From NCBI GenBank assembly GCA_044892525.1, contig CM097885.1:35528001-35592000 (forward strand): a stretch of 64,000 nucleotides of DNA, written 5' to 3'. Positions 7,163 to 31,861 of this stretch are shown one piece after another. Position 1 is the first letter of the stretch. Every line of letters begins with the position of its first letter. Source of the DNA: Schmidtea polychroa (taxonomy: Eukaryota). Under the pieces are notes generated by a model, which searched no databases, was not told the origin of the DNA, and was given only the letters and a program-made list of their open reading frames with translations. The position numbers and the translations under genes were made by a program.

Positions 7163-7815
7163 AATCATCAGTTTGATTTGTTGTTATTAAACTTAAGAAT
7201 AGCTTTAAAAAAATAAATTACAAATTTAAAAATAATTATTTAAAATAATATAGAAAAATAGATAAAATATACTTTTTAAAGATCATTAGGAATAAAAATC
7301 AAAATAGAAACATATTTTTAAAATATTTAAATTTCGTATCTAAATAGTTATTGGAAACTATATTTTATAAATATTTTAATATATTTTTTATTAAAAGAGC
7401 TTTCTTTGAGGTAATTATAAAAGCTTTTAAAATTAAAATTTTTTTTTGTTTTTCGTTTTGAATTTTAAAGGATATTTAATTAAAAAAATTATTTTTAAAT
7501 TCTTCAAAAAAAAGTTTATTATTTTTTTTATTATTTTATTATTTTTAACCAATGAGAATTAAAGTAAAGGAAATAAAAGAGAAGATCAAAAATCATTTTG
7601 AAAATATAAGAAACCAAATTCTAGGAAATTGACGAGGGCTGTCTTATAGTCGAAAATCTTTTCATTAAATACATTATTCGCTGCAAAAGGAATATTATTA
7701 TTATTATTGTTGTAAAAATAGAAGGAATTGAAATTTGAAAAATTGACATTTTCTTTTGTAGGAGGGGCGCTAGTATAAACATTGTTTCGGGTGCAGTTTT
7801 GTTTGTAAGTGTTAT

Positions 7816-8961
7816 AGTAGGTAGTTAGTAGCTTACGGGAACAATAGGGGGGGGGGTAAAAAATGTTGCAAAATTTTGATTGCATAACTTTTTCCTAGAC
7901 ATTTTTTGATTACATAATTGTTGCCATAATGCCCAATTTTTTCTGGGATTTTAAATACAAATTTTTTTTTTCAATAAACAAGCCAAGGATAAATATTATT
8001 TGGGTGGGTCTCCTTTGTCCTGAGAATTTCAATAGAAAAAGGTAGTCTTCAATAAAAAAGCATGGATTTTTCACACAATAGTGAGGGGGGTCTCGATGGT
8101 CCTGGGATTTTCAATACAAAAAGGCGGTCTCACTAAAAAAGCATGGTAATTTAAGGTCTCAGGATATTTTCAATACAAATAGGTGGTCTACACAAAAAAA
8201 AGCCAAGGATTTTTCGAATTAAATTAAGGTGGGTCTCCTTGGTCCTGAGAAAAAGGTGGTCTACACTAAAAAACGTGGTAAATTTTTAAATTAAAGTAAA
8301 TTATGGTTCTAAAAATTAAATTACAGTAAATTATGGCTCAAATTTTTGAATTACAGTAAATTATGGCCAAACTTTTTGAATTACAAAAAATTATGGTCCA
8401 AAAATTTCAATTAAAGTAAATTATGGTTCTAAAAAATTAAATTACAGTAAATTATGGGTCCAAATTTTTAAATTAAAGTAAATTTAGGTTCTAAAATATT
8501 AAATTAAAGTAAATAATTGTTCAAAATTTAAAATTAAAGTTAATTAAGGGCTCAACTAAGTAAATTAAGGTTCTAAATAATTAAATAATCAATGGTAAAA
8601 AAAAATTTAAATTAAAGTTAAATAAGTAAATTAAAGTAATAATTTTTAAATAAGTAAATTTAAGTAATGTAATAAGTAAATTAAAGTAAGATTTTTTAAT
8701 TTATTAACAAAAAAAATAGAAGGTGTTTGGGAATTGAAATTTTTTAATGAAAATTTTTATGAAATAATTTTTTAAGATAATTTTTAATGGATATTTTTAT
8801 GAAATATTTTTCAATGGTAATTTTTAATGAAAATTTTTATGAAATAAATTTTTTCATTAATTTTTAATAGAAATTTTAATGAAATATTTTTCAATGATAA
8901 TTTTTAATGGAAATTTTAATAGAATAATTTTTAAGATAATTTTTAATGAAAATTTTTATGA

Positions 8962-8965
<4 letters not shown>
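7816..8965 (+). repeat. Left terminal repeat region of C (GGTCCTGGGA/GGTCCTGAGA units, ~30-bp AAATTAAAGTAAATTATGG units, TTTTTAATGAAAATTTTTATG units)
   Basis: Same order of sub-arrays as the D arms; anchor ATAGAAGGTGTTTG near 8717. Confidence 0.85.
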
Positions 8966-8999
<34 letters not shown>

Positions 9000-9186
9000 T
9001 AATATTAATAATATATCAACCAAATACTATACAACACATAAAAAATTAACTAAACACATAAAAATAACTAGACACATAACAAAACATATAAACATTAACT
9101 AAACACATAAAAATGAACTAGACACATAACAAACATAAAAATTTACCAAATAACAAATGTAAAGATATAAAATTTATTCAATAAAA

Positions 9187-12100
9187 TTAGTCCTCATCGG
9201 ATAAAATAACGTCATCGATATCGATGTCATCTTCTCCAAAATCTTCATTTAATACTTCCTCATCTTCTCCATCATTTTCTCCAACATTTTCTGAAACATT
9301 TTCTGCAACAATTTCTCCAACATTTTCTCCAATATTTAATTCACTTAATCTTACATGCCCATATGCAAGACTAGTATTTTTCCCCACCCAAACCCTTTTG
9401 TCATCTTTGTTAGTTAGTGCTATTTTTGTGTTTTTAATTGTAAAAATTTGATGATTTTTGCTTGTTATTTTAGTCTGAGGAACCGAAAAAATCTGGTTAG
9501 TGTTATAACAATCCAGGTATGACTGATGTTTTATGTCACTACCTTTCAATGTTACACCTTTAGCCTTTTTTGTTTCCTCATCACCCAACAAGCTATAACA
9601 TTTAGGTCTAAGAAAAACCCATTCCTTATATTTAAGACCTTTATTCTCGTCTTTGAACTTTCCAATGACTGAATCAAGGTTCTTACTATATAAGGAATGA
9701 CAACTATTGTAATTGGAAGTATCCAATAAATTATCTCGAATCATTGCAGGTAAAAGAACCTCAAGTTTACAGTTAATGACTTCGAGGAAAAAGGAATCCG
9801 TATCACCTGCAACGATATTAATTTTACAATTAAACTCATTGCGAAATGATTCCAGATCCTTATATTGCAATTCATACATTCTAAGTTTAGATAGATCAAG
9901 TACAGATTGACCAATGTAACTTGGTCTATCTAAACATATAGAATCTGAATTCAATAATGCCGCGATTAAATTATTGTCTATTTTAATAGATTTTTTAAAA
10001 GTTGGCTTCGAAGAATATTTAACAAGTTTACCGGCAGTTGTACAAAGACGAAGATTCATTCTTCTCTTTAAATTTTCAACTGTTTTGCCGTATAAACTGT
10101 TATTTAGCAATTTATAATAATTTTTATCTAAGTTATTTATGCTTTTTGACCTTAATTCTGTATTTGTATCTATATATTTTTTAAAAATTGGAGATTGCTT
10201 AAATCTTACACCCCTATTTACACGTGTTACTTTAACACCAAGTTCCAAATATAATTTTAATAATCTCCAATGAATCACATAATTAGATTTTGGAAGATGA
10301 GTTAATAATAATTTTTCAACCTTAGACCCAGCAGGTTTCATTTTTTCAGCAGCTACAAGGAAATCATCCAACTTATCATGAAGCTCAGATGGAATTACAA
10401 GATCAACTTCAAGAGTGTATCCATAAGACAAAGATTCAAGATTTAAATTCCTACATTCATCCATTATTAAATCAAATCCATCAAGAACCCAACTAAATTC
10501 GCCACAAGGTAATGATTGACTTAAAGCCCAACCATAAAGATTATTAATATCTATATAAAGTAACTCGGTGTTCTCGTCGGTTTTTACGTAATGCTTATTC
10601 ACAAAAGTAAGACCGCCTCTTATTCCACCCTCATAAAAGCTAAACATTTCGTTTTCAGTTATGAGCTCAATTGGTTCATTTAAAGACATTAATGCAGAAG
10701 ACCAAGACATACCAGGAATTCCGAAATAATTCAATGGTTCCAATCTATTGTGAGCAATGGATTTCAACCGAAACTGATGAAAGAAATCAGCCAAAAGAAA
10801 ACAATCAAGTTTTAGGTAGATCATCATATAATCTAATAAAGTTACGCAATTAGTTTCTACCCAAATCTCCTGAGCTTTTTCATACTCAAGCTCAGTGACA
10901 CCCTCCCAGATTGGTGGTAATTCATAAGTAGTTTGGAGAATATCTAAAGAAGTGGCGAAATTATAAGGGAAGATTCCTTTTTCAGAAACTATAGTACCAG
11001 AAAAAGCAGAATTAGTAAAAGGCAAAGAATTCAAAGTTTTGACTGCTTTAGCTAAAGAATCATTGACAAATTGATAAGAATCAATGAATCTTAAGCTAAT
11101 TTTGCCTAAATGAGCAATCAAAGAAATAAATTTTTCAGTCGTTATTGGGATGCAACCTAAAGTCCAATTTTTAAATTTATTTAATCCGTATTTAAGTATA
11201 TGATGCATATCGTATCCCTTCAAGTTATGAAATACGATAGGCAAAATTTTATTTATTTTCCTATTTATGTTACAAGTGCTACAAGCTGCACCCAAGTATT
11301 TCCCCGTAAAATGATCGTGATCTCTAACAGGATCGACGATAGATTTCAAACAAAGATAGCAAACGGAAGCACTAAAAAATTGATGTTGTTCAATTTTCGT
11401 TAATTTAATCATAGGTTTCCTACCCATTTTATAATAAAAAGGAAGAACCTTATTTAATGCTATATCCTCTATAGCACTTAAAAAACTCTTGACGCAATCT
11501 AAACCTATGAACTGTTGATAAGATTTAGATTCATCAAAGTTATTTACAAGTAAAAGACCAGCAGATATTGGCATGTGTCGTTGGAAATGAAGATTATCAG
11601 AAGGTAAAATAGCCTCAAAATCGGCATAAACTACAAAAGGAGGAGTTACTGTTTTCGACCAGTCAGTAAACTGCAATAATTTATTTTGAGGGAAAGTGTA
11701 AAGAGTTGTTCCTAATTGATTACGTTTACATAATATTTCATGTTTTTCCAGTGCGTTTCTATTTTTAAAACCATTCAAACACCGATGGCACCATAATGAT
11801 TGTATGCTTGTAGGACAAGTAGTGTTGATACCACAATTCAATAACCTATTTAAATTACTTATAGCAACGTAATGGAAATTGTTTCCTTTATTTAATAGTA
11901 GTAAATTAATTACAGTTCCATTTAAAACTTTGGAACGATGTATAATGTCTAAATGTGGATGTTTTAAAACGTAATTATCTGTTAATTGTTTGCTATTGTC
12001 ATAAGAAAAAACGTTAATTATTAAGCCGGGATTTTTGGCCTCAAATTTTCTAATGTCTTTTAATTTCATGGGTAAATCTAACGGATTATATATTAAGTCG

Positions 12101-13594
12101 GATAAATTATAAGTGGATGTCCTATTTCTATATTGTCTAACAACCTCATCATATTTTAAAATAGCTAAAATGCTATATAAAAAACATGAATCATCGGTGT
12201 TTTTTATATTAATTAAACAATATTTATTTTTTAGATAAGTAGGTAGTTCAATGAAACTCCTACCACTTAATCTACTTAACCTACTTATTTTTGTTATAGT
12301 GAAGTGGATTTCTGTTATATTTTTTATAATCCAACTACTTCCTAACTCTGTAATATTAGTTATTTTCTCATTTAGTTCCCTAATACCTTCATCAAAAAAT
12401 GATGCAGTTAAAAGTTTTGCGTAATTGGAGATATTATTAACCTTTATTTCCCCGTCTTTTTCAAATTCGATTGTTATTCCGAATTGAATTTTGACGGAGC
12501 CTAATTCGTTAATAATATCTCGTAATTTTATAATTAATTGTTCAGGAAATATTATTTCCTTTATATTTAAGTCGCTAGTATTTAAACTTAATATTTGTTG
12601 GGTACCCCTTAGATCTTTTTGTATTATGGGAACATTACCCCCTATTTGTATTATATTTAATCCATCCCAAGAATCAAAGGAATTGAATAATCCGACCTGG
12701 GATTCAACAAAAGGCAATCCGACCTGGGATTCAACAAAAGGCAATTTGACCTGGGATTCAACAAAAGACAATCCGTCCTGGGATTCAACAACCAATCCAT
12801 CATTGGATTCAACAAAAGGCAATCCAGCCTGGGATTCAACCTCTAATCCGACCTGGGATTCAAAAGAAGAAGTATCTAATTTAATTTTTTTATTTGTATT
12901 ATTTTTTTCTATAGTTGAGGGTCTTTTAAAAACACTATCTTTTTTAAAATTAAACCTATCTAAATGATGTTTATGTTTATTATAAAAAACGCTATATGTT
13001 ACAGGGTCACTAGTCTTACATACGGGACATATAAAATATGTTTTATTATAATATTTTTTCGTGTAATAATTCTCCATTATAGAATGGCAATTATTATCAT
13101 GTTCTTTCGATGAACAATAATTTGGATAAAGTATACCTATAAAATAAAAATTTAATAAAAAAAAATATATAATTTAAATGAAATATTTTAATAAATGTTT
13201 ACGCATAAATTTACAAATTTTATTTACTAAAAAATAAAAATTTACTAAATTAAAAATATTAACATTTAATTAAATAAAAAATTATATTAAATTTCCTTTA
13301 AATTATATAAAAAAGTAATCAATACTTACATTGTAAATTTTCATTTCGATTTATTGACACATTGACAAAATTTTTCTCTTTATTCGTATTACCTAAATTA
13401 TTAATTAATTAAATCAATAAATAAAAAATTATGTTTACTTTTTCTTTTCAAATTTCCTTTAATCTTCGATTTTAAATTGTCTTCATTAATATTATCTAAA
13501 TTAATTAATAAATTAATTAATAAATAAATTAAAATTTACCAAATTCCTGAATTTTTCCTCGAACATTCATAACGTTTTCTATTAAAGAATTCAT
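9187..13594 (-). CDS. Intact pPolB, spliced: exons 13594-13540, 13495-13439, 13392-13330, 13136-9187
   Basis: Uninterrupted 1296-aa ORF with exonuclease and polymerase motifs (YADFE, FHNLKGYD, YIDINNLYG, KLLNNSLYGK, GDTDS), an endonuclease VII-like DHDH..C..CN insert and an INIKNTDDSCF OTU-like motif. Three GT-AG phase-1 introns (44, 46, 193 bp) join three upstream exons in frame. Confidence 0.92.
12668..12862 (-). repeat. Coding ~27-bp tandem repeat (VESQVGLPF) in the pPolB N-terminal region
   Basis: Repeated CCTGGGATTCAACAAAAGGCAAT units. Confidence 0.9.
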
Positions 13595-14849
13595 TTTTAA
13601 AGGTTAACTATTTGTTAAATGTGACTAATAATTGATTATTGTTTATAGATTATTATTGTTTATAGGAACAAATTCTAACCAATCAAAATCAAGGAAGGGT
13701 AGGGAAAAATATATTACGTTGCGGTATTTTAAAATTAAAATTTATTTTAAAAACACATTTTGATGTTAAAGTCGAGTTATGTAACAAAGACATAATAAAC
13801 TTATTATTTACTACAAATATTTCACCTATCAAATACCTAACTAGAGATGATATATATTGATTGTTCATAAAAGCAAACTTAATCATAAATTTCTGTATAT
13901 TATTTTGTAAATTATTTCAGTAAATTAAATTTTGTATATTATTTCTGTAAATTATCAAGTAAATTTAAAGTTCTTGATAAGGTTAACTGGTTTCTTAGCT
14001 TATGTTTTTTTTAAAAAGTTCATCAATGTGTAAATATTCTTAGAAAATTATTGAAAAAAAAATATTTAGTCAAATGCATTACAAAGTCATCTAAAATTAA
14101 ACCAATTACTTAATTATTAACATAACAGTCATTAAAAAAAAATTAATTTTTATTTAAAATTTAACAAATTATCAAGAAATTCAATTAAAATCATCATTAA
14201 AACTTTAAATTTTTTAATAAATCAACATGAAATTCTTAGAAATATGAAAAAAAAAATATTATTACAAAGTTATATCCTATCACATGATTATTAACCTGAC
14301 TGTCATTAAAAATAATTTTTATTTAAAAAAAAAACCAATCAATTAAAATGCATCCAATTATCAAGAAATTAATTAAATTTATCTTAGAACTAACTTAAAA
14401 TTTTTAAATATTCATTCAATCCACATGAAATTCACGAAAATGATAAAAATTCACAAAAACCATCAACTCTAAAAAAAATAATTACTAATGAATACCTTAA
14501 ACACCAAAATTTATCTAAATAATCTTTCAAATTAATTCATTAAAATTGAAGACAACACGCTCTATTTTGTTATTACATTCAATTAAAATTAAATAAATCA
14601 AGATAAGAACTTTGATAAAAAATATTATTCTAAAATGGTAAAAATTAACACTGTAGTGTCAAATTAAAAGGTAATTATTCTTTAAATCTAATTAACTTAG
14701 TCATAATTTTCTTTAATTTAACCCTTTATTTACTTAATTTAGTCCTTGTTTACCGAATATAGAAGTTTAAAATATAGACCATTGATTACTTTAATTTAAA
14801 AATGTATCCTTAATTTACATAATTTCAATCTAAAATTATTTCAAAAAAT

Positions 14850-15850
14850 TTTTTCTAAAATTGTCATTGAAAAATATTTCATAAAAGTTTTCATTTAAAA
14901 TTTTCATTGAAAAATATTTCATAAAAATTTTCATTAAAAATTTTCATTGAAAAATATTTCATAAAAATTTTCATTAAAAATTATCTTAAAAATTATTCCA
15001 TAAAAATTTCATTAAAAAATTTCAATTCTCAAACACCTTCTATTATTTTGTTAATAAATTTAAAATCTTACTTTAATTTGCTTATTACATTACTTATTTA
15101 AAAATTATTACTTTAATTTACTTATTTAAAATATTTGACCATTGATTACTTAATTTAAAAATTTTTTTAACTTAATTTACTTTAATTCAAATTTGGACCT
15201 TAATTTACTTTAATTGAAAATTTTAGACCATAATTTACTTAATTGAAATTTTAGACCTTAATTTGCTTATTTATCTTTAATTTACTTAAGTTTAAAAATA
15301 TATACCATAATTTACTTAATTGAAATTTTAGACTTTATTTTAGAACTTAATTGAAAATTTTAGACCTTAATTTCATGTAAAATTTTAGACCATAATTTAC
15401 TTATTTGAAAATTTTAGACCTTAAATTGCTTAATTGAAAATTTTAGACCTTAATTTGCTTATTTATCTTTAATTTACTTAAGTTTAAAAATATATACCAT
15501 AATTTACTTTAATTTAAAATTTTAGACCATAATTTCATGTAAAATTTTAGACCATAATTTACTTATTTGAAAATTTTAGACCTTAATTTACTTAATTGGA
15601 AATTTTAGACCTTAATTTGCTTATTTATCTTTAATTTACTTAAGTTTAAAAATATATACCATAATTTACTTTAATTTAAAATTTTAGACCATAATTTACT
15701 TAATTGAAAATTTTAGACTTTATTTTAGAACTTAATTGAAAATTTTAGACCTTAATTTGCTTAATTGAAAATTTTAGACCATAATTTACTTAATTGAAAA
15801 TTTTAGACCATAATTTTAATGTAAAATTGTCATTGAAAAAATTTTCATTT
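14850..15850 (-). repeat. Inverted, diverged copy of the C/D subterminal arrays (probable right TIR of C, truncated by E)
   Basis: CAAACACCTTCTAT near 15030 is the reverse complement of the 8717 anchor; TTTTAGACCATAATTTACTT units; TTTCTCAGG at ~15848 mirrors CCTGAGAAA. Confidence 0.75.
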
Positions 15851-16102
15851 CTCAGGCGCCGTTTATAGTAGGTAGATAGTGGCCCGCTGCAAATGCAAGC
15901 CTTTTTTTATGCTGCATCTTTTTTTTGCTGCAACATTTGATTGCGCAATTGTTGCAACTTGTTTTTTTTGTATTGAAAATTCTAGGAAAAAAAAATACAA
16001 TTGCGTAATAATACAAAAAAAATACAACAAAAAAACTAGTTCAAACAATTGCGTAATCAAAAGTTGCAGCAAAAAAAAAGTTGCAGCAGAACCCCTCCCC
16101 CA

Positions 16103-17904
16103 CAAATATATTAATTGAATTTATTTAAAATTATTTCATAAAATTCATAAATTTAATAAAAAAAAGAAATATTTGTGGGGAATAATTAATCAAAATCGGG
16201 GGAATATAAGTGATAATAATTAGTGGAAAATAGAGAATTGGGGGGATATAAGTGAGGAGGATATATAATGAAACTAGTTTATTACATAACAACCCGCGAC
16301 TAGTTTATTACATAACAAGCCGCGTCTAGTTTATTACATAACAAGCCGCGTCTAGTTTATTACATAACAAGCCATGACTAGTTTATTAGATAACAAGATG
16401 TGAATGGTATTTTATTGAGAATCATTGATTAGGTCTTTTTTATAATTTTTGAATAAGTACTTTAATACCTTAATAATTTAAATGTTTTGATTTACACTAA
16501 ATAATTTCTAAATCAATTACCCTTTTCAATCAAAATAAGATCAATTATATACCTTTTTATAAAATTCAGTTAAAATTAAATACTTTCCACTAAATTTAAA
16601 ATATATAAATTTTATAAGTTTTTCAAATTTTCAAATAATATAAATAAGAAATTAATCTATTACCAGTTACATACTTTTAAACTTATTGACGGAATTATGT
16701 AATAGAAATAAAAAGTAACTTAGGTTATTTTTTTTTTCAAAATTATGACTAAGTCCTTTAATATTGTAATAATAGCTATTTATTAACCCTTTCCAGCCCA
16801 GTGATTCCAAATGGAATCATTAGTTAAAAACTCAGTTTTTTCTCTCTACTACCAAAACGGTTGGCAGTAACTAGTGAGAACTATAGTAAGATATGTTTTT
16901 AACAGTTTTCTAAAGGGGCAACAAAAAAAATGAAGTAAAATATTTTTATGATAAAATAAGTAGTTTTGGTACCTACTTACTGCATATATTTTTTTTTGTT
17001 TTGAAAAAAATTGGGCTGGAAAGGGTTAATAAAATTATTAATTTACGTTAAATATTTCAAAAACAATTATCATATTATTAATTATATTACCCTTTTTAAT
17101 CAAAATAAGATCACTATTGAAATAGATGATTTTTATAAATTACAATCAAAATTAAATACTTTTACACTAAATTTAAAAATATAAATTTTATAAGTAAATG
17201 TAAATAAGAAATTACTGTATTAGCAGTTATAGACTTTTAAAACTTATTGATTAGATATTAAAAGTTACTTTTTTTTTCAAAAAGTCCTTTAATATTGTAT
17301 TCTATTCATTATTAAATTTACTATTTTACACTAAATATTTAGAAAACAATCATCATAATATTAAATATGATACTTCAATCAAAATAAGTTAATACTCAAA
17401 TATTTGTCTTAAAAATTAAATCAAAATTAAATATTTCACTAAATTTTAAGTAAATATTTTTAAATTCTCAAATAAATGTTAACAAGATATTAATTTATTA
17501 ATCATTATAGACTTTTTAAACTTATTATTGGAATAAAAAACAATTTAATGATATTCAAAATATATACAATTTTAAAATATAATTAAAATTAAATTACATA
17601 CTAGGTAAAATGTTGGTAAAATACCATTCACAGCTTGTTATATAATAGTCATGGCTTGTTATGTAATAAACTAGACGCGGCTTGTTATGTAATAAACTAG
17701 TCGCGGGTTGTTATGTAATAAACTAGTTTAAATTATATATCCTCCTCACTTATATCCCCCCCCCCCGATTCTCTATTTTCCACTAATTATTATCACTTAT
17801 ATTCCCCCGATTTTGATTAATTATTCCCCACAAATATTTCTTTTTTTTTATTAAATTTATGAATTTTATGAAATAATTTTAAATAAATTCAATTAATATA
17901 TTTG
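16103..17904. repeat. Inverted repeat (~300-bp arms 16103-16414 and 17618-17904) around a spacer of degenerate direct repeats
   Basis: Arms read as reverse complements and contain 26-bp ACTAGTTTATTACATAACAAGCCGCG units; homologous to the centre of D. Confidence 0.88.
16787..17025. mobile_element. piggyBac-type MITE (239 bp)
   Basis: 14-bp TIRs CCCTTTCCAGCCCA / TGGGCTGGAAAGGG flanked by TTAA on both sides; the homologous site in D (55827-55830) has a single TTAA. Confidence 0.92.
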
Positions 17905-20254
17905 CATTCTTATCAACTTTCTTCTTATCTATGCCCATTCAATGATCCATTAATGAATTATTCTACCAATTATTTTCACCCATTTGAATCGAGTAATGAA
18001 TAATTTCCTCACTTTAATGAAGATTCTTACCACCTTCATTGTTAATTTTATCAAAGTTTAAAGAATATTTCTCTTTACATTGCTTACCACTTTAGAATTT
18101 TTATCGAAATTTATGATAATTTGACTAATTCAATGAAGAATGAGTTAATTAATATATACTCTGAGTTTATCCGACAAAATATTCTGTCCCCCTATGGGTA
18201 TTGCTCACAAGGGTACTACTCACATTCAACATGTCGCAAGGGTACTGATCATTTAATGCTTTTATTTGAATGATTATTTAGGCAAATTTGATGTTTAAGG
18301 TATTGATAATTTTTAGAGTTGATGGTTTTAGTAAATATTCAAGTAAATTTCTATCATTTTTATGAATTTTTATAGTTTTTATGAATTTCTATCATTTTTA
18401 TGGATTTCCATTATTTTCATGAATTTCCGTAATTTTTGTGAATATCTGTAATTTAATGCTAATTCTAAGGTAAATTTAATTAATTTCTTGATAATTGAAT
18501 GTATTTTTATTGACTTGTTTTTTAATTTTAAATAAAAATTTATTTTTAATGAGGTTAATAATTAAAGTTTGTACAATAATCAAGTGGTAGGATAAATTTT
18601 GATGAGTATATTGAATAATTTTCTAAGAATTTCATGTTGACTGATTAAAAGTTTTAATGGTGATAAATTTAATTGATAAATTTAATTAATTTCTTGATAA
18701 TTAGTTGTATTTTATTGAATAGTTTTTAAATAAAAATTAATTTCATTGACAATTAGGTTAATAATTAAGTGATAGAATAAATTTTTGATGATAACTTTGT
18801 AATATATTTGAATAAATAATTTTTTCAATAATTTTCTAAGAATATTTACACATTGATGATCTTTAGAAACATAAGCTAAGAAACCAGTTAACTTTATCAG
18901 GGACTTTAAATTTACGTGATAATTATTGTAGGATATAAAGAAATTTAGTTTGCTGTTATTGCTTGAAAATGATTGGCTGAATCGATGAAGAATTATGATC
19001 AATCAATATATATCATCTCCAGTATTTGATGGTAAATATTTGTAGAAAATATTGATTTTTGATCTTTTAGTGAACTCTTACTACATAGCTACTAAATTAT
19101 TTCAATGGAAGAATATTTGGTGTCTATAACAATTAAGTCATATTTTTGAAGTTCTTTAAAGATTTTAAGAGGATTGATATATATTAAAGGGCTCAAGTGG
19201 GTAGAATTGAAGGATATATTCGGTTAGATGTTTAAAGGGGTAGAAATATTTGGTGAGAGATCGGTTAAGATGGGATATTGTTGGTTAAATTTAATGAGGG
19301 ATGGGTTAAGATGGGAATATATGATCTTTTGAGGGGATATAGTCGGTTAGATTTAATGAGAGATCAGATAAGGTGGGAATATATCATTGTAAGGGAGATA
19401 TAGTCGATTGAATTTAATGAAGGATGGGTTAAGATGGGAATATAGTCGGTTAAATTTAATGAGACATGGGTTAAGATGGGAATATATGATTTTTTTAATG
19501 GTGATGTTGGTAAAATATCATTGTTTTAAGGGAAATGTCAATTAGTCAGTTATGTATCAATAATAATTATATCGTTTTATTAGGTTGTGATTAATTCATT
19601 GTATATTAATTTAGATTTATGTTTTAGAACAATGTTCTATTAAGTAAGGATAATGATCGATTTACTTGGTTTTGACGATGAAAACTTTACAGATAAATGG
19701 GATTGATATCAACTTTAAATTATTTTTATCTTTATTTAGACGGACAACGACAAAAGTTGAGAAATATGGACTTAAAACATTGACTAAATAAAATTGATCT
19801 TTATTGGAAGAAATCTTGATTTTAATTAGTAATTAAATCGGTTGAATATTGGTAAAAATGATCATTTGAAGAAATATAATTTATTGAATGGATAAATTTA
19901 ATCTTTCAATGGGACCTAGTCAGTTATATTGTAGTAATATTTATTTAAAATATCGAGTACAGTGATTAACAAAAAATTAATTATAACCAGTTTTATCATT
20001 AGATTTTATAAATTATTTAGGGTTAATGATTTTACATGTTTTATAGGGAAATATTCGTGATAATAGGAATTAAAGTTAGAATTATAGTCATTTGAAGGGG
20101 ATTTTAAGGAATCTTATTAGTCTGAGGGGAATATATGATCCTTTACGGGTACTTATCATAGTAGATGGATTGGGCACCGCTGGCACAGGGCACCGCTAGC
20201 ACAGTACCCCCCCCCCTCCCCCGTCGGTAAGATTTTCAAAAAGTACATTTTTTT

Positions 20255-21225
20255 TCAAGGTCAAATTTAAACAAAGACATATGACTCATCAAGGTCATTG
20301 AAACAAAAACCATGAGTCATCCTATGACTCATCAAATTTCTCAAGGTCATTTAAACAAAGACCATGACTCATCCTATGACTTATCAAGGTCATTTTCAAG
20401 GTCATATGACTCATAATATGACCCATCAAGGACAAAAATTTTTTTCAAGATCATTTAAACAAAGACCATGACTCATCAAGGTCATTTTCAAGGTCGTATG
20501 ACTCATACTGTGACTCATCAAGGTCACTTTCAAGGTCATATGACTCATCCGATGAGTCATAAAATTTTCAAGGTCATTTAAACAAAGACCACGACTCACT
20601 CAAGGTCATTTTCAAGGTCATATGACTCATTCAAGGTCATTTTCAAGGTCATATTACTCATTCAAGGACATTTTCAAGGTCATATGACTCATCCAAGGTC
20701 ATTTCAAGGTCATATGACTCATTCAAGGACATTTCATGGTCATATGACTCATTCAAGGACATTTTCAAGGTCGTATGACTCATACTGTGACTCATCAAGG
20801 TCACTTTCAAGGTCATATGACTCATCCGATGAGTCATAAAATTTTCAAGGTCATTTAAACAAAGACCACGACTCACTCAAGGTCATTTTCAAGGTCATAT
20901 GACTCATTCAAGGTCATTTTCAAGGTCATATTACTCATTCAAGGACATTTTCAAGGTCATATGACTCATTCAAGGTCATTTCAAGGTCATATGACTCATA
21001 CTATGACTCATCAAAAAATTTCCAAGGTCATATGACTCATACTATGACTCATCAAAAATTTTCAAGGTCATTTTCAAGGTCATCTGAGTCATCCTATGAC
21101 TCATCAAGGTCATATTATTATTTTTTAAAATATTATTATTTTTATTATTATTTTCAAGGTCGCATGACTCATCCAAGGTCATTCTCAAGGTCATGTGAGT
21201 CATCGCGATGAGTCATCAAGGTCAT
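20255..21225. promoter_or_regulatory. Subterminal tandem array of TCAAGGTCA and TGACTCA/TGAGTCA motifs (putative enhancer)
   Basis: More than two dozen copies of each motif; they match the NR5A/ERR monomer site and the AP-1 site. Function is inferred. Confidence 0.6.
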
Positions 21226-21404
21226 ATTATTATTTTTTAAAATATTATTATTTTTATTATTATTTTTAAAAAATATTATTATTTTTAATTCTTTTCAAAG
21301 TTCCCGTCAACAAAAATTAATAATCGATAGCTCATTTTAAAGCTCAATCCAAGGCCTTTCGAATGAGCCATATAACTTGTTATTAAGATTATTATTTCTA
21401 AAGA

Positions 21405-21624
<220 letters not shown>

Positions 21625-21786
21625 CTATATACACCGAGTCTATATACTCCGAGTCTATCCGACAAAATATTTTGTCCCCCTATGGGTAATGCTCACAAGG
21701 GTACTGGTCACGCTCAACAAATCAACAAATCAACAAAACATACATTTATTTAAACAATAAAATAATGTAAAATTAACAAAGGTAAA

Positions 21787-22278
21787 CTAAATATATATAG
21801 TATGATATTCATTAATCAGTGTTGAACAGGCTTGACACTTGCGAACATTCTTCTCGTGACACTTAGAACAAACAATTACATGACCACATGGTAAATACAA
21901 AACCGAAACTCGATTTTCTTTACAAATTGAACAAGTTAAATACCTTTTCTTAACATCGTTCAGTTTTTTCGTTAGCTTATTTTCAATCAAATCGGTTTTT
22001 GCTATCGAATCATAAATCAATCTACTATATCTAGGTTTCAACCTTAAATACATACAACTCCAAAAGTATTCATTCAGTGAATCATTGTTTACTGATATTT
22101 TTTCTAAGTACATTAAATAACAAGATAACTTTAAAATGGATTTCTCATAATTAAATAAATCAAACAAATATTCAATAGAGGAATGTTTGAAAATCTTTAA
22201 AATATTTATGAGTTGCTTATCACTGTAAGTATCATGATTATTTATAAAATCTTCAACTGTGTTGTTAAAAAATTTCAA
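21787..22278 (-). CDS. C-terminal C3HC4 RING finger protein (IAP/MDM2-type RING); 5' part spliced or decayed
   Basis: CSICKENRVSVLYLPCGHVIVCSKC..CQACSTLI..IYI* at the extreme C-terminus. No ATG at the ORF start; candidate 49-bp GT-AG intron at 22384-22336 and an in-frame TAA upstream. Confidence 0.75.
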   Translation of the reverse strand: MKFFNNTVEDFINNHDTYSDKQLINILKIFKHSSIEYLFDLFNYEKSILKLSCYLMYLEKISVNNDSLNEYFWSCMYLRLKPRYSRLIYDSIAKTDLIENKLTKKLNDVKKRYLTCSICKENRVSVLYLPCGHVIVCSKCHEKNVRKCQACSTLINEYHTIYI

Positions 22279-22575
22279 TGAAATTTCAGAATAGGTTGGA
22301 CATAATTTTTACTTATTTCTAGTAGGACTTCCTTGCTATAAATGGTATATATAAAAAAAAATATTGACAAAATAATAAAGTTACCAAATGTGTTACACAT
22401 TCATCAGTTTTATTTATAGAAATCATTAGTAATAAATTTCTTAATAACTAAATTACTTTTGTTCTTACATTTATAAAATTGTGATAGCCAATTAAAATAT
22501 AGTTTTCAAAATGTAGAAATTGTAACCATCAAATGTATAATAAGCAGGACTAGTAACCTTGCAAGCTGTTTAAAG

Positions 22576-22577
<2 letters not shown>

Positions 22578-22651
<74 letters not shown>

Positions 22652-22664
22652 ATTATTATTATTA

Positions 22665-22721
<57 letters not shown>

Positions 22722-22740
22722 GTATGCAAGCTGTTTAAAG

Positions 22741-22785
<45 letters not shown>
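22578..22785. repeat. (ATT)n microsatellite blocks with a duplicated TGCAAGCTGTTTAAAG spacer
   Basis: Direct reading. Confidence 0.93.
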
Positions 22786-22786
<1 letters not shown>

Positions 22787-23125
22787 GTGATTGATATAGC
22801 TGCATGCTCACTGCAGACTATATAAAAAAAAATACTGATATAGCTGCATGCTCACTGCAGACTATATAAAAATTATAATAAAACAACAAATACTTAAAAA
22901 AATTAAAAAAAAAAAATCTGATTACAAATTTTATTCAATATGTATATATAAATACAAGTTTTATACAATATACAAGTTATAATACAGGTTTTTGTACAAG
23001 TTTTTTTTTTAAATAAAAGTTTCTATACAATTTTTATACAATTTTTATAAATCACGAAATCACTATATAAATACAAGTTTTTATAAATCAAAATATAAAG
23101 TTTTTTTCTTTTCAATTTGTTCTAT

Positions 23126-25934
23126 TTAAATTTGATCTTCGTCCCATTCGCTGTCGTCAAAACTGGGACTTGGAGCTGGACCGAATTCCTCATCATATTC
23201 GCTTAATTCGTCAACTCCTAGATAGTGCCCAAATGCGTAACTTATGTTTTTTCCTAGCCACGCGCGCTTATCATCATTATTACTTAGGGCAATTTTCGAA
23301 TTTTTAAAAGTAAAAAGTTGGTGATTTCTAGTACCTATTCTAGTCTGCGGTACAGAAATCACCTTATTTGAATGAAAGCAATTTAGATATGTTTCATGAT
23401 TTATTGATGTCCCTGGTAATTTAACCCCCTTCGCTTTTACCGTTTCCTTACTACCTAAAAGACTATAACATTTAGGACGTAAGAAAACCCATTCAGAATA
23501 ACCTAATCCCTTGCTCTCATCTTTAAACTTCCCGATGACCGAGTCAAGGTTCCTATTATACAAGGGGTGTGTTGGATCGTAATTTGACGTATCCAATAAA
23601 TTATCAGAGATCATCTGAGGTAATAGAGTTGTTAATTTTAAATTTTTTATTTCTAGAAAAAAGCTGTCGGTATCACCGGCAATAATATTTATAATACATT
23701 TATATTGACGTCTGTACTTCTCCAAATCAATATATTGGAGCTGATACATCCGCAGTTTAGACAGATCTAGTACTGTTTGACCGATGTAGCTAGGTCTGTC
23801 TAAACAAATTGAATCTTTTTCCAAATGTGCCGCAATCAGATCGTTATCGATTCTTATAGACTTTCTGAAAGTCGGCTTTGAGGAGTATACTATCATCTTT
23901 TCGGATGAATTACACAACCTCAAATTCATTCGTTTTTTCAGATTTTCAACGGATTTACCGTACAGACTGTTATTATACAATTTAAACAAGTCCCTATATA
24001 TCTCGCTAGTAGACTGAGATCGTAAAGTGGTGTTGGTGTCTATGTAGGATTTAAAGATAGGTCCTTGTTTAAACTTTATACATCTATGAATATTTACAAC
24101 AACCGCACCTAATTCTATATACAATTTGAGAAGCCTCCAATGAAGAACATAGTTCCTCTTTGGCCAATGCGTAAGCATAAGCTTCTCAACTTTTGAATTA
24201 GGCGGGCACAACTTTTCCGGCGCAAGCGGAAAATCATTCAAAAAGTCATGCACACATTCCGGAATATCGATATCGACCTCCATAGTATACCCATATGGAA
24301 GGTTATCAATATCCGTGTTCATACATTCAAGTAAAACATCATTCAAGTTATTATTCACCCAAGAAAAATCACCATACGGAAGATTTTGGCTAAGAGCCCA
24401 ACCATATAAATTATTTATATCAATGTACAATAATTCTGTATCATCTGAAGTAGCCGTGTAATGTTTGTTAACAAATGTTAACCCACCCCGGATACCTCCC
24501 TCATAGAAATTATACATTTCCATGTCCTGCAAAAGTTTTATGGGTTCCGTTAATGTCATAAGCGCTGAGGCCCATGACATACCGGGAATCCCGTAGAAAT
24601 TAAGAGGATCCAGACCATTGTAAGCAATTGCCTTACCGCGGAATTGCTGAAAATAGTCTGCGAGGAGGTATACGTCCAATTTTAGGTAGATTAACATATA
24701 ATCTAACAAATTATTACAGTTATGCTGACTCCAAATTAGTTGAGCCTCAGCGTACTGATCTTCCGTAACATCAGAGCAAATAGGAGGTAATTCTAAAGTC
24801 GATTCAAGAACATCCAAAGAAGTAGCGAAATTATATGGAAAGATACCTTTAGAGTGAATCATCGACCCTTGAAAGACAGACGAAGTTAACGGAAAAGTAG
24901 TTAAGGTTTTCACAGCTTTGGCTAAAGAACAATTAACAAATTGCATGCTGTCAATAAAACGAACAGGCAATTTGTTAATATATGCAATTAAAGATATAAA
25001 TTTTTCTGTAGAGGTAGGTATAATATTAAGTTCCCAAAGGGGAAAATCACTGAGACCATGTTTTAAAATATGGTGGAGGTCATAGCCTCGTAAATTATGA
25101 AAGACAACAGGTAACAACTTATTAATCCTGCGAGAGACATTGCATTTCCTACATGCCGCTCCGACATATCTACCTGTAAAATGGCAATGATCTCTCACAG
25201 GATTAATAATAGCTTTTTTACACAAATAACAAATAGTGGTAGATCGAAAGGCACGCTCCTGAGCAAAAGACAAAGTAGACATACCTTTATGACCTTCAAG
25301 TTCATAATATGGCAGGACAATTGTGACAGCAATTTCCTCCACTTTCCTCAAAAAATCCAAAATACAATTAGGTCCAAAAAAATAATAATAAAATTTAGTG
25401 TTTGTATAATTATTAATTAATAAAAGACCTGCTGATATGGGTAAATGTATTTGATGATATGTTTCATGTTCTGGTAAAACCGATTCAAAATCAGCATAAA
25501 TTACGAAGGGAGGTGTAACGGTTTTTGCGTAATCTGTGAATAATAAATCCTTATTTTTAGGAAGTGTATACAAGGTTGTGCCAGTCTGATTTTTACAGCA
25601 TAGAGCAACATGCTGATCGAAAGCATTCTTATATCTAAAGCCATTTAAACAATGTGGGCACCAGTTACACCTTATTTGAACATTTACATTTTCATTTAAA
25701 TGACAATTCATTAATTTGTCCAAGTCTGTCACTGCCGTATAATGATATTTATCTTTATTACTCAAAAGTAATAAATAAATCGGCCTACCATCTATAACCT
25801 TGGAGCGATGTATGATATTAAGATGAGGGTGGTGAGCTACATAATCCTGAGAAATATCACAATCAGAACTGGCTGGATTATACGAAAGAACGTTTATGCT
25901 TAATTTTAAATCACGATTTTTCCTTTCAAATTTG
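23126..25934 (-). pseudogene. pPolB of element A, 3' part (separated from its 5' part by insertion B)
   Basis: Full exonuclease and polymerase motifs. Removing B and one TSD gives CPMRLCNIPK-FERKNRDL, matching CPMKLCDIPKFERKNNDL of X. Confidence 0.94.
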
Positions 25935-26267
25935 AGTAGTGAGGAATCTATGCACCCCAGCACCCCCACCCTAAAAAAAAACAGCGCTATTGACCCATAT
26001 TTTCCACATTTATATGCTTTTTTACCCCATATTCTTCACTTTTTTTAACTTTTAAACTTTGTCCCCTATTGCCATTAACCCTTAATTTCTTCCCTTAAAA
26101 GTAAAAAAGTTCGGAATAGATGTATTTATAGATTAGTAATTCCGAGAAAAGGTAACGGGGTGCATAGATTCCTCACTACTTGGTCTTAAGGATTTAATGT
26201 TATAAGGATTTAATGTTATAAAAATATCAGATTACCTAATTCATAATGATCTAGGTCGCCTGATCAC
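25935..26267 (+). repeat. Left TIR of B, with an internal inverted copy of the terminal 24 bp at 26157-26180
   Basis: Near-perfect reverse complement of 40834-41165. Confidence 0.96.
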
Positions 26268-26313
26268 CTTAAGGTTTTGAAAGTTTTAAAAATAAAAAAT
26301 ATTATGAAATAGT

Positions 26314-26702
26314 AAAACTGCTCTGAGAGGACAGTGGTTTTTTTTTTTTTTTTTTCACTGTCCTCTCAACAGTTTTTTTTTTGATCCGGATCATTTTTTT
26401 TTATTCAACCTCTTTCGTTTATCAAATCTCTTCCAATATACAAGCTGGCCAGACTCATACATCAGAATCAATTCGATAATAGCAGCACACCTTATTATTC
26501 GCTTCTCGCTCGAATACGATTTCATCGGCGTTTTAAGTGTGCTGCTCGAAAGTACAAATGAATTCGAAAGCGAATCCGAAAGAGGTCCGAAAACAACTGA
26601 GAAATAAATGTGCACATTACCGGAATCGATCCGGGGGTGTTCGAAAGACAGGTGGCGATAATTACCGGTTCGCCACCATCACCCGTTTCAATATTTTTTT
26701 TT
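26314..26702. ncRNA. Putative structured RNA/ssDNA region
   Basis: 13-bp stem 26324-26336/26356-26368, 10-bp stem 26481-26490/26537-26546, 8-bp stem 26651-26658/26670-26677; five CGAAA motifs; T-run at the end. Confidence 0.4.
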
Positions 26703-26849
26703 CATATTTATGTTTAAAAAATAATTAATTAATAAAAAAATAAAATAAAATAAAATAAATAAAATAAAATATACAAGTACTTTATAAATATAAGATACCC
26801 ACACTATTATTTTCAAATTTTTAATATTATTTTATGTTGAAAAAAAACT

Positions 26850-26923
26850 AACCTCAGATGTGATTTGAACCACTATCCATTTGAACCACTGTGCCAGTCT
26901 ATTCCCACTGCGCCATCAAGGTT
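26850..26923 (-). ncRNA. tRNA-like putative Pol III gene 3
   Basis: A box TGGCGCAGTGG, duplicated B box GGTTCAAAT, followed by a T8 run; overlaps the end of ORF 26873-27169. Confidence 0.5.
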
Positions 26924-27169
26924 TGAATTTTTGTCATTTTTTAGACTATAAATAATCGATTCAAGTTCTTTAACTCTTTCCTGTAATTGTTTCATTTTCT
27001 TTAATCTTATATCAGCAACATCTACAGCCTTCATATAAAAATGTCGATACTTTTCATTATCTACCATCAACTCTTTGATGTATTCTAATGGTTCTTCTTC
27101 TCTTCTTTTCATTCTCTTATGTTTAACTTCATTCAATTCATTTCTCATTCTTTCTTTTAACTCATCCAT
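26873..27169 (-). CDS. Hypothetical small coiled-coil protein of B
   Basis: 98-aa ATG ORF with an AAAAATG context like other B genes; charged, helical composition. Confidence 0.55.
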   Translation of the reverse strand: MDELKERMRNELNEVKHKRMKRREEEPLEYIKELMVDNEKYRHFYMKAVDVADIRLKKMKQLQERVKELESIIYSLKNDKNSNLDGAVGIDWHSGSNG

Positions 27170-27337
27170 TTTTATAAATATTTTTTTATTGGATATATTA
27201 ATTTTTGGTAGCTTAAGTTAAAACGTTTTTGATCTTAAATTTCCAAGAGTTGCCGTTGACCAATCTCATTAAAAATTTGTACAAGTACTAAATCGAGTAT
27301 GCTGATCAATATTTCGTTAAAAAAAATTGAAAAAAAA

Positions 27338-27410
27338 TGACCGAAATGGGATTTGAACCCATTGGTATTGGCAATGCAGTCGAGTGCTATTACCACTAAG
27401 CTATTAGAGC
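27338..27410 (-). ncRNA. tRNA-like putative Pol III gene 2 (GCA at the anticodon position, anticodon stem unpaired)
   Basis: 73 nt; A box TAGCTTAGTGG; D stem GCT/AGC; perfect T arm ATGGG-TTCAAAT-CCCAT; T-run immediately downstream. Confidence 0.62.
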
Positions 27411-27579
27411 TATACTCAATATAAAATAAGTTGTTAATGTGTGACTATTTATTGATGAAATTGATAATTAATTATTCATTTTCTCGACAACTACCACTCA
27501 GATCCATCTGAAAATTTAAATATATACTAAAATAAGTACGCTGAATCAGATTCCGTTGAAAAAAAATATCGATAAAAAT

Positions 27580-27653
27580 TGACCAAAATCGAAAATTGAA
27601 CCCGGTACTCCCGGTGATAAAATTGAAGCCTATTCCCACTCAGCTATAATGGC
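27580..27653 (-). ncRNA. tRNA-like putative Pol III gene 1
   Basis: 74 nt; A box TAGCTGAGTGG; B-box-like GGGTTCAAT; same GGTCA 3' end as gene 2; T5 downstream. Confidence 0.5.
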
Positions 27654-27709
27654 TTACATAATATATTTAATTATTCCTATTTTATGTGTGTAAATTTTAA
27701 TATATAAAA

Positions 27710-29002
27710 ATGAATAACATAAATCTTAAAATTCAAGAAAAAAATAAATTAAATATTGATTATAATAAAGAATTTACTCATGAAATTAAAAAAAATGATA
27801 TTTTAAAAATCTCCCCTACGTCAGGATCGATTGCAAACTTAAATCGTAGGGGTGATATAGTTTTTCAATCTCTTCAAACATCAAACCCTATAGATATTTG
27901 TAATGCCAAATTATATTATAAAATCGAATTAGAAATTGAAGCAAACAAAGATATAACCCTAGAAAATAATTTCTTTCCAAATTTATTCTCCAACATGAGA
28001 TTAAAACTAGGATCATCAGAAATTGAAACTGTTTTGCATCCGGGAGTATATTCTACAATGTTAAATTTTATTTTGACTGGTTGTGATTATAAAAACGAAT
28101 ATGGTGAATTAACAGGTTGGATTCCTGATGTTAATAAAGGGGATTTAGATAAAGATGGTTTAGATGTAAACCATGGTTACCATAAAAGAGCTGAACTTTA
28201 TAAATCTAAAAAATTTGAAGGTTATTTTGAATTAAAACACTTGTTTGGATTCCTTCAAAACTATAATCGTATACTTCATAATGTTTTTATAGAATTCATC
28301 TGTAATAGAGTAGAAGGTGATAAAAGATTGTTCTATGGAGCTGTAGATACAAAAGCTAAATTAAAATTATCAACACTTGAATTACATATACCTGAATGGA
28401 CATTAAACCCACATTCTGAGATTAAACTCCTTGAAAGATTAAATTCCAACAAGTCTATAAATGTAAATTATTTAAATAGAATCTGTAGTGAATTTAGTAT
28501 GACAGAGGGTTCAACATATTCTATAAAGGTAGCAAATTTAGCATACCGACCAAGATATATCTTGATTGGATTCAAAGAAGTAGATTCATCTTTCCAAAAA
28601 AATAACAACTTGTTTATTCAAAAGATTGGAGTTGATAATTTAAAAACAATCCAAATTCAATTAAATAGTTCTTATTATCCAATAAATAGAATGGAATTTA
28701 ATATTGAAAATAATGAAAACATATTCCCATATCTAAATTATATTGAAACATGTTATGATTTCAAAGTTGAACCGCAATTAAGTTTAGAAGATTTCAAAAA
28801 TTTATATTCTATATTTTGTATAAATGTTTCAGACCAAGATGATCGCCTAGCCATAAATAATGTTGATGTTACACTTCATGTAACAAAGGATTCTAATTTT
28901 AAAGCTAAAGTATATACATTAATATTAGAAGAAAAGAAAATAGAAATGAAATTATATGGTGGAAAGATTTCAATAATCGAAAATGTTAGGGGAGATTCTT
29001 GA
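27710..29002 (+). CDS. Double jelly-roll major capsid protein of B
   Basis: 430 aa; NLNRRGDIVF, NNFFPNLFS..L, PRYILIGF, LNSSYYP, IFCINVS motifs typical of Polinton MCPs; gene context. Confidence 0.85.
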   Translation: MNNINLKIQEKNKLNIDYNKEFTHEIKKNDILKISPTSGSIANLNRRGDIVFQSLQTSNPIDICNAKLYYKIELEIEANKDITLENNFFPNLFSNMRLKLGSSEIETVLHPGVYSTMLNFILTGCDYKNEYGELTGWIPDVNKGDLDKDGLDVNHGYHKRAELYKSKKFEGYFELKHLFGFLQNYNRILHNVFIEFICNRVEGDKRLFYGAVDTKAKLKLSTLELHIPEWTLNPHSEIKLLERLNSNKSINVNYLNRICSEFSMTEGSTYSIKVANLAYRPRYILIGFKEVDSSFQKNNNLFIQKIGVDNLKTIQIQLNSSYYPINRMEFNIENNENIFPYLNYIETCYDFKVEPQLSLEDFKNLYSIFCINVSDQDDRLAINNVDVTLHVTKDSNFKAKVYTLILEEKKIEMKLYGGKISIIENVRGDS

Positions 29003-29031
29003 TATAATCCCTGATATTTTAACATTTTAAA

Positions 29032-30441
29032 ATGTCTCTAAATAAATATTGGAGATGTGAAAGTTGTAATTGTCAAGTTACAAGACATCATAAAGCAAGT
29101 CATTTAAAAACTAAAAAACATACAGGAGGTGATCTAATTCCACGAGCTGGAGGCGATTTGCAATCTTCAAAAACAACATCTTCAATATTAAAACCTTTTA
29201 CTACAGAAAAATATCCAGGTGAAAGACATTTATTTAAACACAACTATACTGGACCAGGAACACGTCTAGATATTAGATTAGATGAAAATAATAATCCCAA
29301 ACAAGGAGAAGAACCAATAAATAGAATTGATCAAGCAGCTTTAAAACATGACATTGCATACAATTCAACAAATCTTAGAGATAGACATGTTGCAGATGTG
29401 AATTTAATACATGATTTAAATAGTATCCAAAATCCATCAACCCAAGAAAAGGTTCAAAGAGCTCTAGTTAAATTAGCAATGAAAGGTAAGATTTTCATAG
29501 GCTTAGGACACAGTCCGATCACCATGGGTGCAAGACTTCCTAGAATAGCAAAAGATGTTGCTTATAAAAAGATTATCGAACAATCAGACATTGAAAGATC
29601 CCTCGAGAGTACAGCCAAGACTAGTTTACAAACCCCAACAGAATCAGAAATAAAATATGCAAAGGAATTACACCATGAATTTAGAAAAAATAAAAAATAT
29701 TTAAAAGTTCAAGTACATGAAAAAGATCAAACATGGTCTGCAGATTTAGTCTTTATGCCCAAATCATCAGACCCTGAAAAATATAAAATAATTTTAACTG
29801 TAATAGATTTATATACAAGATTTGCTTTTGCAAGGTGTTTAGAAAATAAAACAGGATATTCTATTACAGAAGCATTTGAAAATATATTTGAAGAAAATCA
29901 AAGAATCCCAAAATATTTATGGTGTGATAAAGGAACAGAATTTTATAACAAAGTTTTTACAAAGTTTTTAAATGAAAATGATATTAAATTATATTCAACA
30001 GAAAACGAAGGAAAAGCAGTCGTAGTTGAAAGATTAAATAGAACATTAAAAAATAAAATGTGGAAATATTTTACTGCTATTGGAAAACAAAAATGGAACA
30101 ATGAATTGTTACAAAAGATTGTAAATGAATATAATAATGATGTACATAGTTCTATAAAATTAACACCTTTAAATGCTTCCATGAAGCCTGAAACCATTAA
30201 AGTGGTAAATATTGAAAATGATGTTATTGAAAAACCAAAGTTTAAAATTGGTGACCGAGTAAGAATATTTAAATATAAAAATTAATTTGAAAAAGGATTC
30301 ACAGCAAAATGGACAAATGAAATTTTTATTATAAATAAAATAAATTATACAACTCCAATAACATATAGCATCTTTGATTTAAATAATGAAAAAATATTAG
30401 GTAGATTTTATAATAATGAACTACAGAAAACTGATTTTTAA
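29032..30441 (+). CDS. Zinc finger + parvovirus-type PLA2 (PLA2X) + rve integrase fusion, with a premature TAA at 30283-30285
   Basis: CESC..H..H; HNYTGPGT..D.AALKHDIAY; WSADL, IDLYTR, CDKGTEF, VERLNRTLK. The frame continues after the stop as FEKGFTAKWTNEIF..GRFYNNELQKTDF*. Confidence 0.92.
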
Positions 30442-30452
30442 GTCGACAAGCC

Positions 30453-31244: not shown

Positions 31245-31260
31245 TTTTATTTATTATAAA

Positions 31261-31839: not shown

Positions 31840-31861
31840 TACCATTTTTGATACCATTAAA

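Follow-up and report, generated by a model that had tools for sequence, protein, structure and literature searches.

Introduction

Polintons are defined by the joint presence of a DNA polymerase and an integrase. Gene loss from such elements is the supposed origin of linear plasmids (PMC11161782). The Polinton polymerase, a protein-primed family B polymerase (pPolB), is arranged as terminal-protein, vOTU, exonuclease and palm domains (TP-vOTU-EXO-PALM; PMC11161782; PMC4028283) and primes on its own terminal-protein domain at the ends of the element (PMC11161782). The subject of this work is an element, C, examined in a 64,000-nucleotide stretch of Schmidtea polychroa DNA (contig CM097885.1, positions 35,528,001 to 35,592,000), here called the window. 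C begins at position 7816 with the terminus AGTAGGTAG, and its visible stretch of 8051 bp (7816–15866) carries a single unbroken polymerase gene. It is tentatively interpreted, with a probability of about 0.45, as an inherited, polymerase-only and helper-integrated member of the family of the foldback elements D and E in the same window.

Polintons, or Mavericks (adintovirus-like), are like C in the AGTAG terminus, the subterminal arrays, the OTU-type Cys/His residues and the exonuclease and palm motifs, and a further likeness is that the neighbours of C have target-site duplications (TSDs) of 6 bp. They are unlike C in that its visible 8 kb holds no integrase, capsid, ATPase or protease gene, its arms are about 92% identical rather than near-identical, and its gene has a predicted spliced leader. 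Linear plasmids and transpovirons carry further genes, and they replicate outside the nucleus or with giant viruses, whereas C is chromosomal, has predicted spliceosomal introns and is known only in integrated form. These plasmids (pGKL1, kalilo) and transpovirons are described as capsid-less linear replicons from polinton-like ancestors with a fusion of polymerase and terminal protein (PMC11161782), and a hairpin-forming deletion derivative of kalilo cited in the same source parallels D.

Capsid-less Polintons are described as devoid of the capsid module rather than of the integrase (PMC4028283). The polinton-like viruses Ca_PLV1 and AHEV_PLV1, one of which is integrated, have no detectable integrase, and their authors propose integration in trans (PMC11296320); they share with C a PolB-type polymerase without an integrase, but encode divergent capsid proteins and other genes. 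The segments of Vesanto virus from Drosophila are short units bounded by inverted repeats, some with a PolB homologue, which depend on units sharing their terminal sequences (PMC8363768). Vesanto virus and the bidnaviruses are like C in having short units of this kind, some with PolB, but are putative segmented single-stranded DNA viruses that are not integrated, and their polymerase is distant (14%). At ten C. elegans loci the pPolB1 end of Polinton-1_CB is preserved, with the polymerase beside a terminal inverted repeat (TIR) and no integrase within 20 kb (PMC11414722); these are treated as partial remnants, whereas in C the gene is unbroken and an inverted array block lies on the side away from the terminus. 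No description of a polymerase-only Polinton family was found in the literature searched, which took in few subscription papers and neither supplements nor Repbase; the gene-content supplements of PMC4028283 and PMC13215967 could list some.

A single unbroken polymerase gene

The window consists of AT-rich eukaryotic DNA in which a nest of Polinton-type elements, X, C, E, A, B and D, was mapped from their ends and TSDs. The visible part of C and its candidate TSD are laid out as follows.

7810..7815, plus strand: candidate TSD TGTTAT, 6 bp, left of the C terminus; one copy seen
7816..8279, plus strand: left terminus AGTAGGTAG and subterminal repeats
8280..8546, plus strand: 30-mer tandem array of the left arm
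8640..8745, plus strand: spacer between the left-arm arrays, with a non-repetitive core at 8680–8735
8735..9013, plus strand: 40-mer array (13-mer sub-unit), then (AAT)17
9187..13136, minus strand: polymerase main exon, unbroken
13330..13392, minus strand: predicted leader exon 3, 63 nt, AG..GT, phase 1
13439..13495, minus strand: predicted leader exon 2, 57 nt, AG..GT, phase 1
13540..13570, minus strand: predicted leader exon 1, ATG, 31 nt, then GT
13641..13683, minus strand: candidate promoter words, ATTGG and two TATAAAC, of presumed function; the same words occur upstream of the A polymerase
13797..14544, plus strand: non-coding inner segment, homologous to D 54096–54845 (73–79%) and, inverted, to E 18395–19059 (74%)
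14690..15850, minus strand: inverted array block, consisting of 30-mer remnants, a 40-mer array (14832–15024), a spacer, a 29-mer array (15090–15816) and a 40-mer restart at 15823

An earlier sequence-only reading of the window had described a single uninterrupted pPolB gene in C and lesions in the pPolBs of X, A and B, and both observations were borne out. The long frame of C (9187–13173, minus strand) is free of stops over 1328 codons. The polymerase of X, which starts before the window, has an in-frame stop at 1291–1293, that of A is split by B with a frame change between the pieces, and that of B has a frame change between 38860 and 38851. The reading missed the three predicted exons upstream of the C frame and the collinearity of C with the gene-less D and E. 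The predicted leader exons are stop-free, bounded by GT-AG and in phase 1, bringing the total with the main exon to 4101 nt, and they would be spliced to it. A bacterial promoter scan, of a type not applicable to eukaryotic DNA, gave results at chance level.

The product of the long frame is a protein-primed family B polymerase. Its family was missed by a full-length Pfam scan and recovered with a trimmed core (PF03175, E 2e-29). The model built from a 95-row alignment had a predicted local distance difference test score (pLDDT) of 91.5, and a fold from the single sequence had a pLDDT of 30. A fold search with the model gave phi29 polymerase as the best match among solved structures (E 2e-19) and densovirus-labelled and adintovirus polymerases as the nearest predicted viral folds; a sequence search of solved structures with the C polymerase returned no match. 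All 10 catalytic positions (OTU-type Cys/His, Exo I–III and Pol A–C) are present in C and are kept in 89–95 of the 95 aligned rows, the patterns used being those that we take to be typical of the OTU-type Cys/His, Exo and Pol residues. The model contains a confident alpha/beta domain before the OTU-type Cys/His residues, the whole-chain fold search being dominated by the polymerase core, and the product probably follows the domain plan of Polinton polymerases, with terminal protein, vOTU, exonuclease and palm. The N-terminal linker contains an in-frame 27/24-bp tandem repeat (12689–12863), where A has different repeats.

The C polymerase is 60.6% identical to that of A and 67.6% identical to the C-terminal piece of X. 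In a FastTree phylogeny of 667 columns and 45 rows, from which the N-terminal piece of X was excluded, it was sister to A and X with a support of 0.999 and on a branch no longer than theirs, indicating that the lineage has long been under selection. When columns invariant in 22 homologues were compared, C departed at 4 of 196 and A at 3 of 181, with a leave-one-out range of 0–11. These departures are compatible with decay of under about 1% at the site, and therefore an unbroken gene is not necessarily an active one.

At least half of the sampled words from 9150–14800 were held by 10 of the 24 listed sequencing runs, a measure of presence rather than of structure or copy number, and the best run, which may be the source sample, held 0.82. 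None of the RNA runs was listed as a holder of C words. The DNA of C is not peculiar to one assembly. The AT-rich arrays that flank it on both sides could have led repeats of different copies to be joined during assembly, but B and D, with exact TSDs and near-perfect long repeats, were resolved in the same window, and 0.82 exceeds the 0.70 of the sampled interval that is polymerase exon, making such an artefact extremely improbable.

Stop-free frames in C other than that of the polymerase reach 75 codons at most. Twelve queries for integrase, capsid, ATPase and protease, taken from A, B and the related full Polinton L002, gave no match in 7816–15866 at E ≤ 1. Among 61 query frames, none of the real genes of the window, of L002 or of a second full Polinton, L004, matched the non-coding parts of C, and Rfam gave 0 matches in 7700–20200. 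Of the genes that mark an autonomous Polinton, C has the protein-primed family B polymerase, and within 7816–15866 it has neither the rve integrase nor the capsid module (major and minor capsid, ATPase, protease). In what is visible of it, C resembles in its working the replication end of a Polinton. Since only a polymerase is visible in 8 kb and no integrase accompanies it, insertion would have been in trans, as the sequence-only reading had proposed, on the condition that C ends soon after 15866.

Shared layout with gene-less foldbacks

The elements of the nest fall into three types of terminus: C, E and D start with AGTAGGTAG, A and X end in AGTAGATGG, and B in AGTAGTGAG. The AGTAGGTAG word occurs five times in the window against 0.23 expected, and four of the five occurrences are element ends (7816, 15867, 48150 and 63806). 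The two foldbacks that share this terminus with C are the following.

48150..63806, plus strand: element D, a 15.7-kb gene-less foldback with 7382-bp arms that are 99.8% identical; TSD AAAATA
15867..20159, plus strand: element E, gene-less, with a AGTAGGTAG end and a D-like centre and right arm (about 81% to D)

The terminus, the subterminal repeats, both arrays and the inner segment of C are found in the same order in the left arm of D, so that the left 6.7 kb of C is collinear with a D arm. At the left end 26 of the first 31 nt are shared with D, and identity over 8006–8280 is 88.7%. The distance from terminus to inner segment is 5981 bp in C (7816–13797), which includes the polymerase, and 5946 bp in D (48150–54096), which has none; this near-equality may reflect a length constraint or chance. 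The position of the polymerase is occupied in D by about 4.5 kb of non-coding repeats. The proposal that this filler is a decayed polymerase was ruled out, as no tblastn match was obtained. The right block of C is oriented and ordered as the outer part of the D right arm, and C therefore resembles a D-family arm that contains a polymerase and is followed directly by outer-arm arrays.

C shares with the foldbacks D and E the terminus type, subterminal repeats, arrays and inner segment, together with their order and spacing, and thereby the common features of the AGTAGGTAG foldback family. It differs from that family in not being a gene-less, near-perfect palindrome, having a gene and unequal arms, whereas D has no polymerase; C also lacks a 90-bp motif that is present in X, A, D and E.

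Integration in trans works for AGTAGGTAG ends, because the gene-less D has an exact 6-bp TSD. The polymerase lineage of C is the natural candidate for the replicase of D and E because it shares their ends, unlike the polymerases of A, X and B, and it could plausibly replicate both. In the mechanism that we propose, the C product would prime DNA synthesis at AGTAGGTAG ends through its own terminal-protein domain, C would copy itself from its ends, and the same polymerase lineage would replicate D and E. Insertion of C would be carried out by the integrase of another Polinton in trans, any packaging would likewise occur in trans, and the unequal arms would go back to a parent element whose own symmetry had disappeared long before.

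If a polymerase-only family that inserts in this way exists, it would be an intermediate between Polintons and linear plasmids, and a likely replicase could be named for the abundant gene-less foldbacks of the genome. Elements like C would be missed by surveys that require a polymerase and an integrase within 20 kb, as described in PMC11414722, or several hallmark genes and a loop of at least 15 kb between near-perfect TIRs, as described in PMC11131425. A more elaborate arrangement would be a three-tier, multipartite Polinton system in which full elements supply integrase and capsid, C-like units supply the replicase for AGTAGGTAG ends and foldbacks such as D and E ride on both, C being a nuclear, intron-bearing segment of linear-plasmid type and a living intermediate between Polintons and linear plasmids; this scheme is unlikely.

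Unequal arms and competing interpretations

The sequence-only reading had taken the terminal arrays on the left and an inverted copy on the right as the two ends of an ~8.5-kb replicon. The homology was upheld, but the clean mirror was not. The non-repetitive spacer core of 56 nt has an inverted copy that is 91% identical and scores 79, whereas 300 shuffles averaged 25 and never exceeded 40, and judged by this comparison the inverted block is truly homologous to the left arm. Across the spacer and the 40-mer array the two gave 260 matches, 24 mismatches (24/284) and 10 gaps, an identity of 91.5%. In the spacer alone 89 of 93 positions matched (4% difference). The arms of D differ at 4 positions in 1996. 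In line with a caution in the earlier reading, the repeat regions are diverged (about 92% in C against 99.8% in the D arms), and in line with a second one, the right end lies outside the window: neither C nor E has a right terminus in the window, where the single exact plus-strand CTACCTACT is that of D.

The block is no closer to the left arm of C than to D, and from its sequence it does not look like an ordinary TIR partner. The proposed length of ~8.5 kb (8051 + 428) follows from an assumed mirror that the sequence does not display, and the outer 430 bp of the putative right end lie beyond the window. As a whole, the observation made in the sequence-only reading was partly confirmed and its interpretation partly supported.

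Several results weigh against the interpretation of C as a helper-integrated member of the D/E family. In 316 ungapped columns the left arm and D agreed against the right block at 23, the right block and D against the left arm at 19 and the two C sequences against D at 12, and the cosine of the 8-mer profiles of the 30-mer array was 0.80 between left arm and D compared with 0.41 between left and right. The mirror stops at 15817 and the 40-mer array restarts at 15823, where a mirror predicts D-like unique subterminal sequence; only the 9 nt before E (TTTCTCAGG) agree with that expectation. Two of the four departures of C from invariant columns are private, being found in neither A nor X, so activity is not assured, and in a nest this young a frame can be open without any particular reason. 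The relatives of C are ordinary Polintons: A encodes both capsid and integrase, and at 28 of 34 related loci there is a marker for capsid, integrase, ATPase or protease. A TIR-bounded polymerase-only element is absent from the 34, in a viral collection that is biased towards capsid-bearing contigs. Remnants with a polymerase and a TIR and no integrase are, moreover, already described in C. elegans (PMC11414722).

The arms also bear on the age of the element. In simulations of neutral change, 34% of C frames stayed open at 0.5% change; at 2% change per arm the frame was open in 1.45%, and it was open with the invariant columns kept in 2 of 1500. The divergence of the arms cannot have arisen at the site, because a change of 2% would nearly always break the frame or the invariant columns. 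This leaves two possibilities, inheritance of arms that were already unequal and the joining of two elements.

Under the second of these possibilities C is a one-off remnant or chimera that never moved as a unit: a young element supplied the left end and the polymerase, another member of the family, older or different, supplied the arrays, and a deletion, or recombination within the inner segment common to both, brought them together. The star-like relation among left arm, right block and D and the break of the mirror at 15817 are what would be expected from such a junction, as is the separate homogenisation of the right 29-mer array, which is built of 162/192-bp higher-order repeats with the 162-bp repeats 97% identical. 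E demonstrates that arm loss occurs in the family, the dense nest holds other Polinton debris (a capsid fragment near 5985–6104), and the remnants described in C. elegans (PMC11414722) are similar. Against this, the two C arms are the closest pair in the spacer (95.7%, compared with 84.9% and 87.9% to D). The gene also lacks no part, its leader exons and promoter words reaching as far as an inner segment that has the same position in D and E, and the interval from 9000 to 15866 contains neither another terminus nor a TSD. A chimera is rated less likely than the polymerase-only interpretation; were it true, C would be ordinary debris of a Polinton nest.

A further alternative is that the host has kept the polymerase, either as a domesticated gene or as a helper locus selected in place. 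C is the oldest layer of the nest and yet has the sole unbroken polymerase, while several lesions are found in A, the younger of the two provided that the nest is chronological. The nest is, however, young (2 differences in 330 bp of the B TIR; 99.8% identity of the D arms), so that survival by chance is enough to account for the open frame, and the two private departures from invariant columns look like decay. Selection in place is very improbable.

Relatives were also sought outside the window. The best protein matches to the C polymerase are 50–60% identical. In viral contigs a locus search with the single sequence gave no relatives among 9 candidates, and an alignment search gave 30 distant relatives. 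The total of 34 loci excludes L005 and L006 (1.1–1.4 kb) and L007–L016, and L001 and L003 are too short for their gene content to be judged. The six loci without a marker comprise two that are barely longer than the gene, three with 8–11 long frames and L046, which has other genes. Capsid-module genes stand within about 1–3 kb of the polymerase in A and L004 and directly after it in L002.

Another alternative is that what is visible of C forms the left-hand portion of a larger Polinton sufficient to itself, with the array block internal to it and the integrase, capsid and ATPase genes beyond the nest formed by E, A, B and D. The right end lies outside the window, the 40-mer restart at 15823 implies that the block is not simply the last kilobase, and the closest relatives with known context (A, L002 and L004) are full Polintons. 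On the other hand, the 2.3 kb upstream of the first exon of C contains no frame of more than 75 codons, in contrast to the capsid genes near the polymerase in A, L004 and L002, and the block is oriented and ordered as the outer right arm of D. A larger C is accordingly considered quite unlikely.

Some details of the relatives deserve mention. In L002 the capsid module faces the polymerase from downstream, whereas the modules of A and L004 are upstream of the polymerase and share its orientation. A short frame in L002 (11330–11806) resembles a TBP-like gene. L041 (1–9821) is a TIR-bounded contig of 9.8 kb with polymerase, ATPase, protease and minor capsid markers and no match to an integrase or major capsid protein. 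L046 (1–6543) was considered as a polymerase-only element and rejected, being a complete TIR-bounded contig of 6.5 kb that carries other genes besides the polymerase; we take it to be bidnavirus-like. Ten matches to the terminus pattern in viral contigs were also set aside as chance, none being similar to the window.

The surrounding nest

The two full Polintons of the window have the following extents.

20160..64000, plus strand: element A, end AGTAGATGG, extending past the window edge
25935..41165, plus strand: element B, a full Polinton unrelated to A, inside the A polymerase gene; TSD AATTTG

E is inserted in C and is in turn interrupted by A, and the bases at the insertion point of E (15861–15867) spell the promoter word TATAAAC on the minus strand. 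E is asymmetric compared with D, having a terminus and a 160-bp hairpin (15919–16078) followed by the centre and right arm of D, with most of the left arm gone. D, inserted near the start of the A minor capsid gene, contains the array block a second time, in degenerate form, at about 51200–51540. The genes of A are a RING gene, the split polymerase, a protease, major and minor capsid genes and an integrase (63829–63999); the RING-finger gene (21787–22308, minus strand; PF13920, E 1e-9) lies between the left end of A and its polymerase. Two features of B were noted at 29023–30435 and 35789–36352: its integrase is fused to a phospholipase A2-like domain and has an in-frame stop, and a second copy of the polymerase 3' end, 73% identical, follows the polymerase gene. 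The 2 differences in the B TIR fall within its first 330 bp, and the 25-mer at the end of this repeat recurs inside it, at 26180 and 40921.

To the left of C, the right end of X is at 4048. The region at 4200–5200 resembles a decayed DNA transposase. The left flank of C at 5985–7162 starts with the capsid fragment near 5985–6104, which is 82% identical to the corresponding sequence of A, and continues with two frames, for which Pfam gave no support, that resemble pieces of a retroelement with reverse transcriptase (RT) and GIY-YIG domains.

The 90-bp motif that is absent from C is common to X, A, D and E, which represent two terminus types, at 86–99% identity, and is much better kept than its surroundings. 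Its copies are located as follows.

3768–3848, 18145–18234, 21641–21705, 54871–54960 and 57000–57089: copies of the 90-bp motif

In X and A the motif lies between the 3' end of the polymerase and the terminus, and it is possibly a cis-acting signal.

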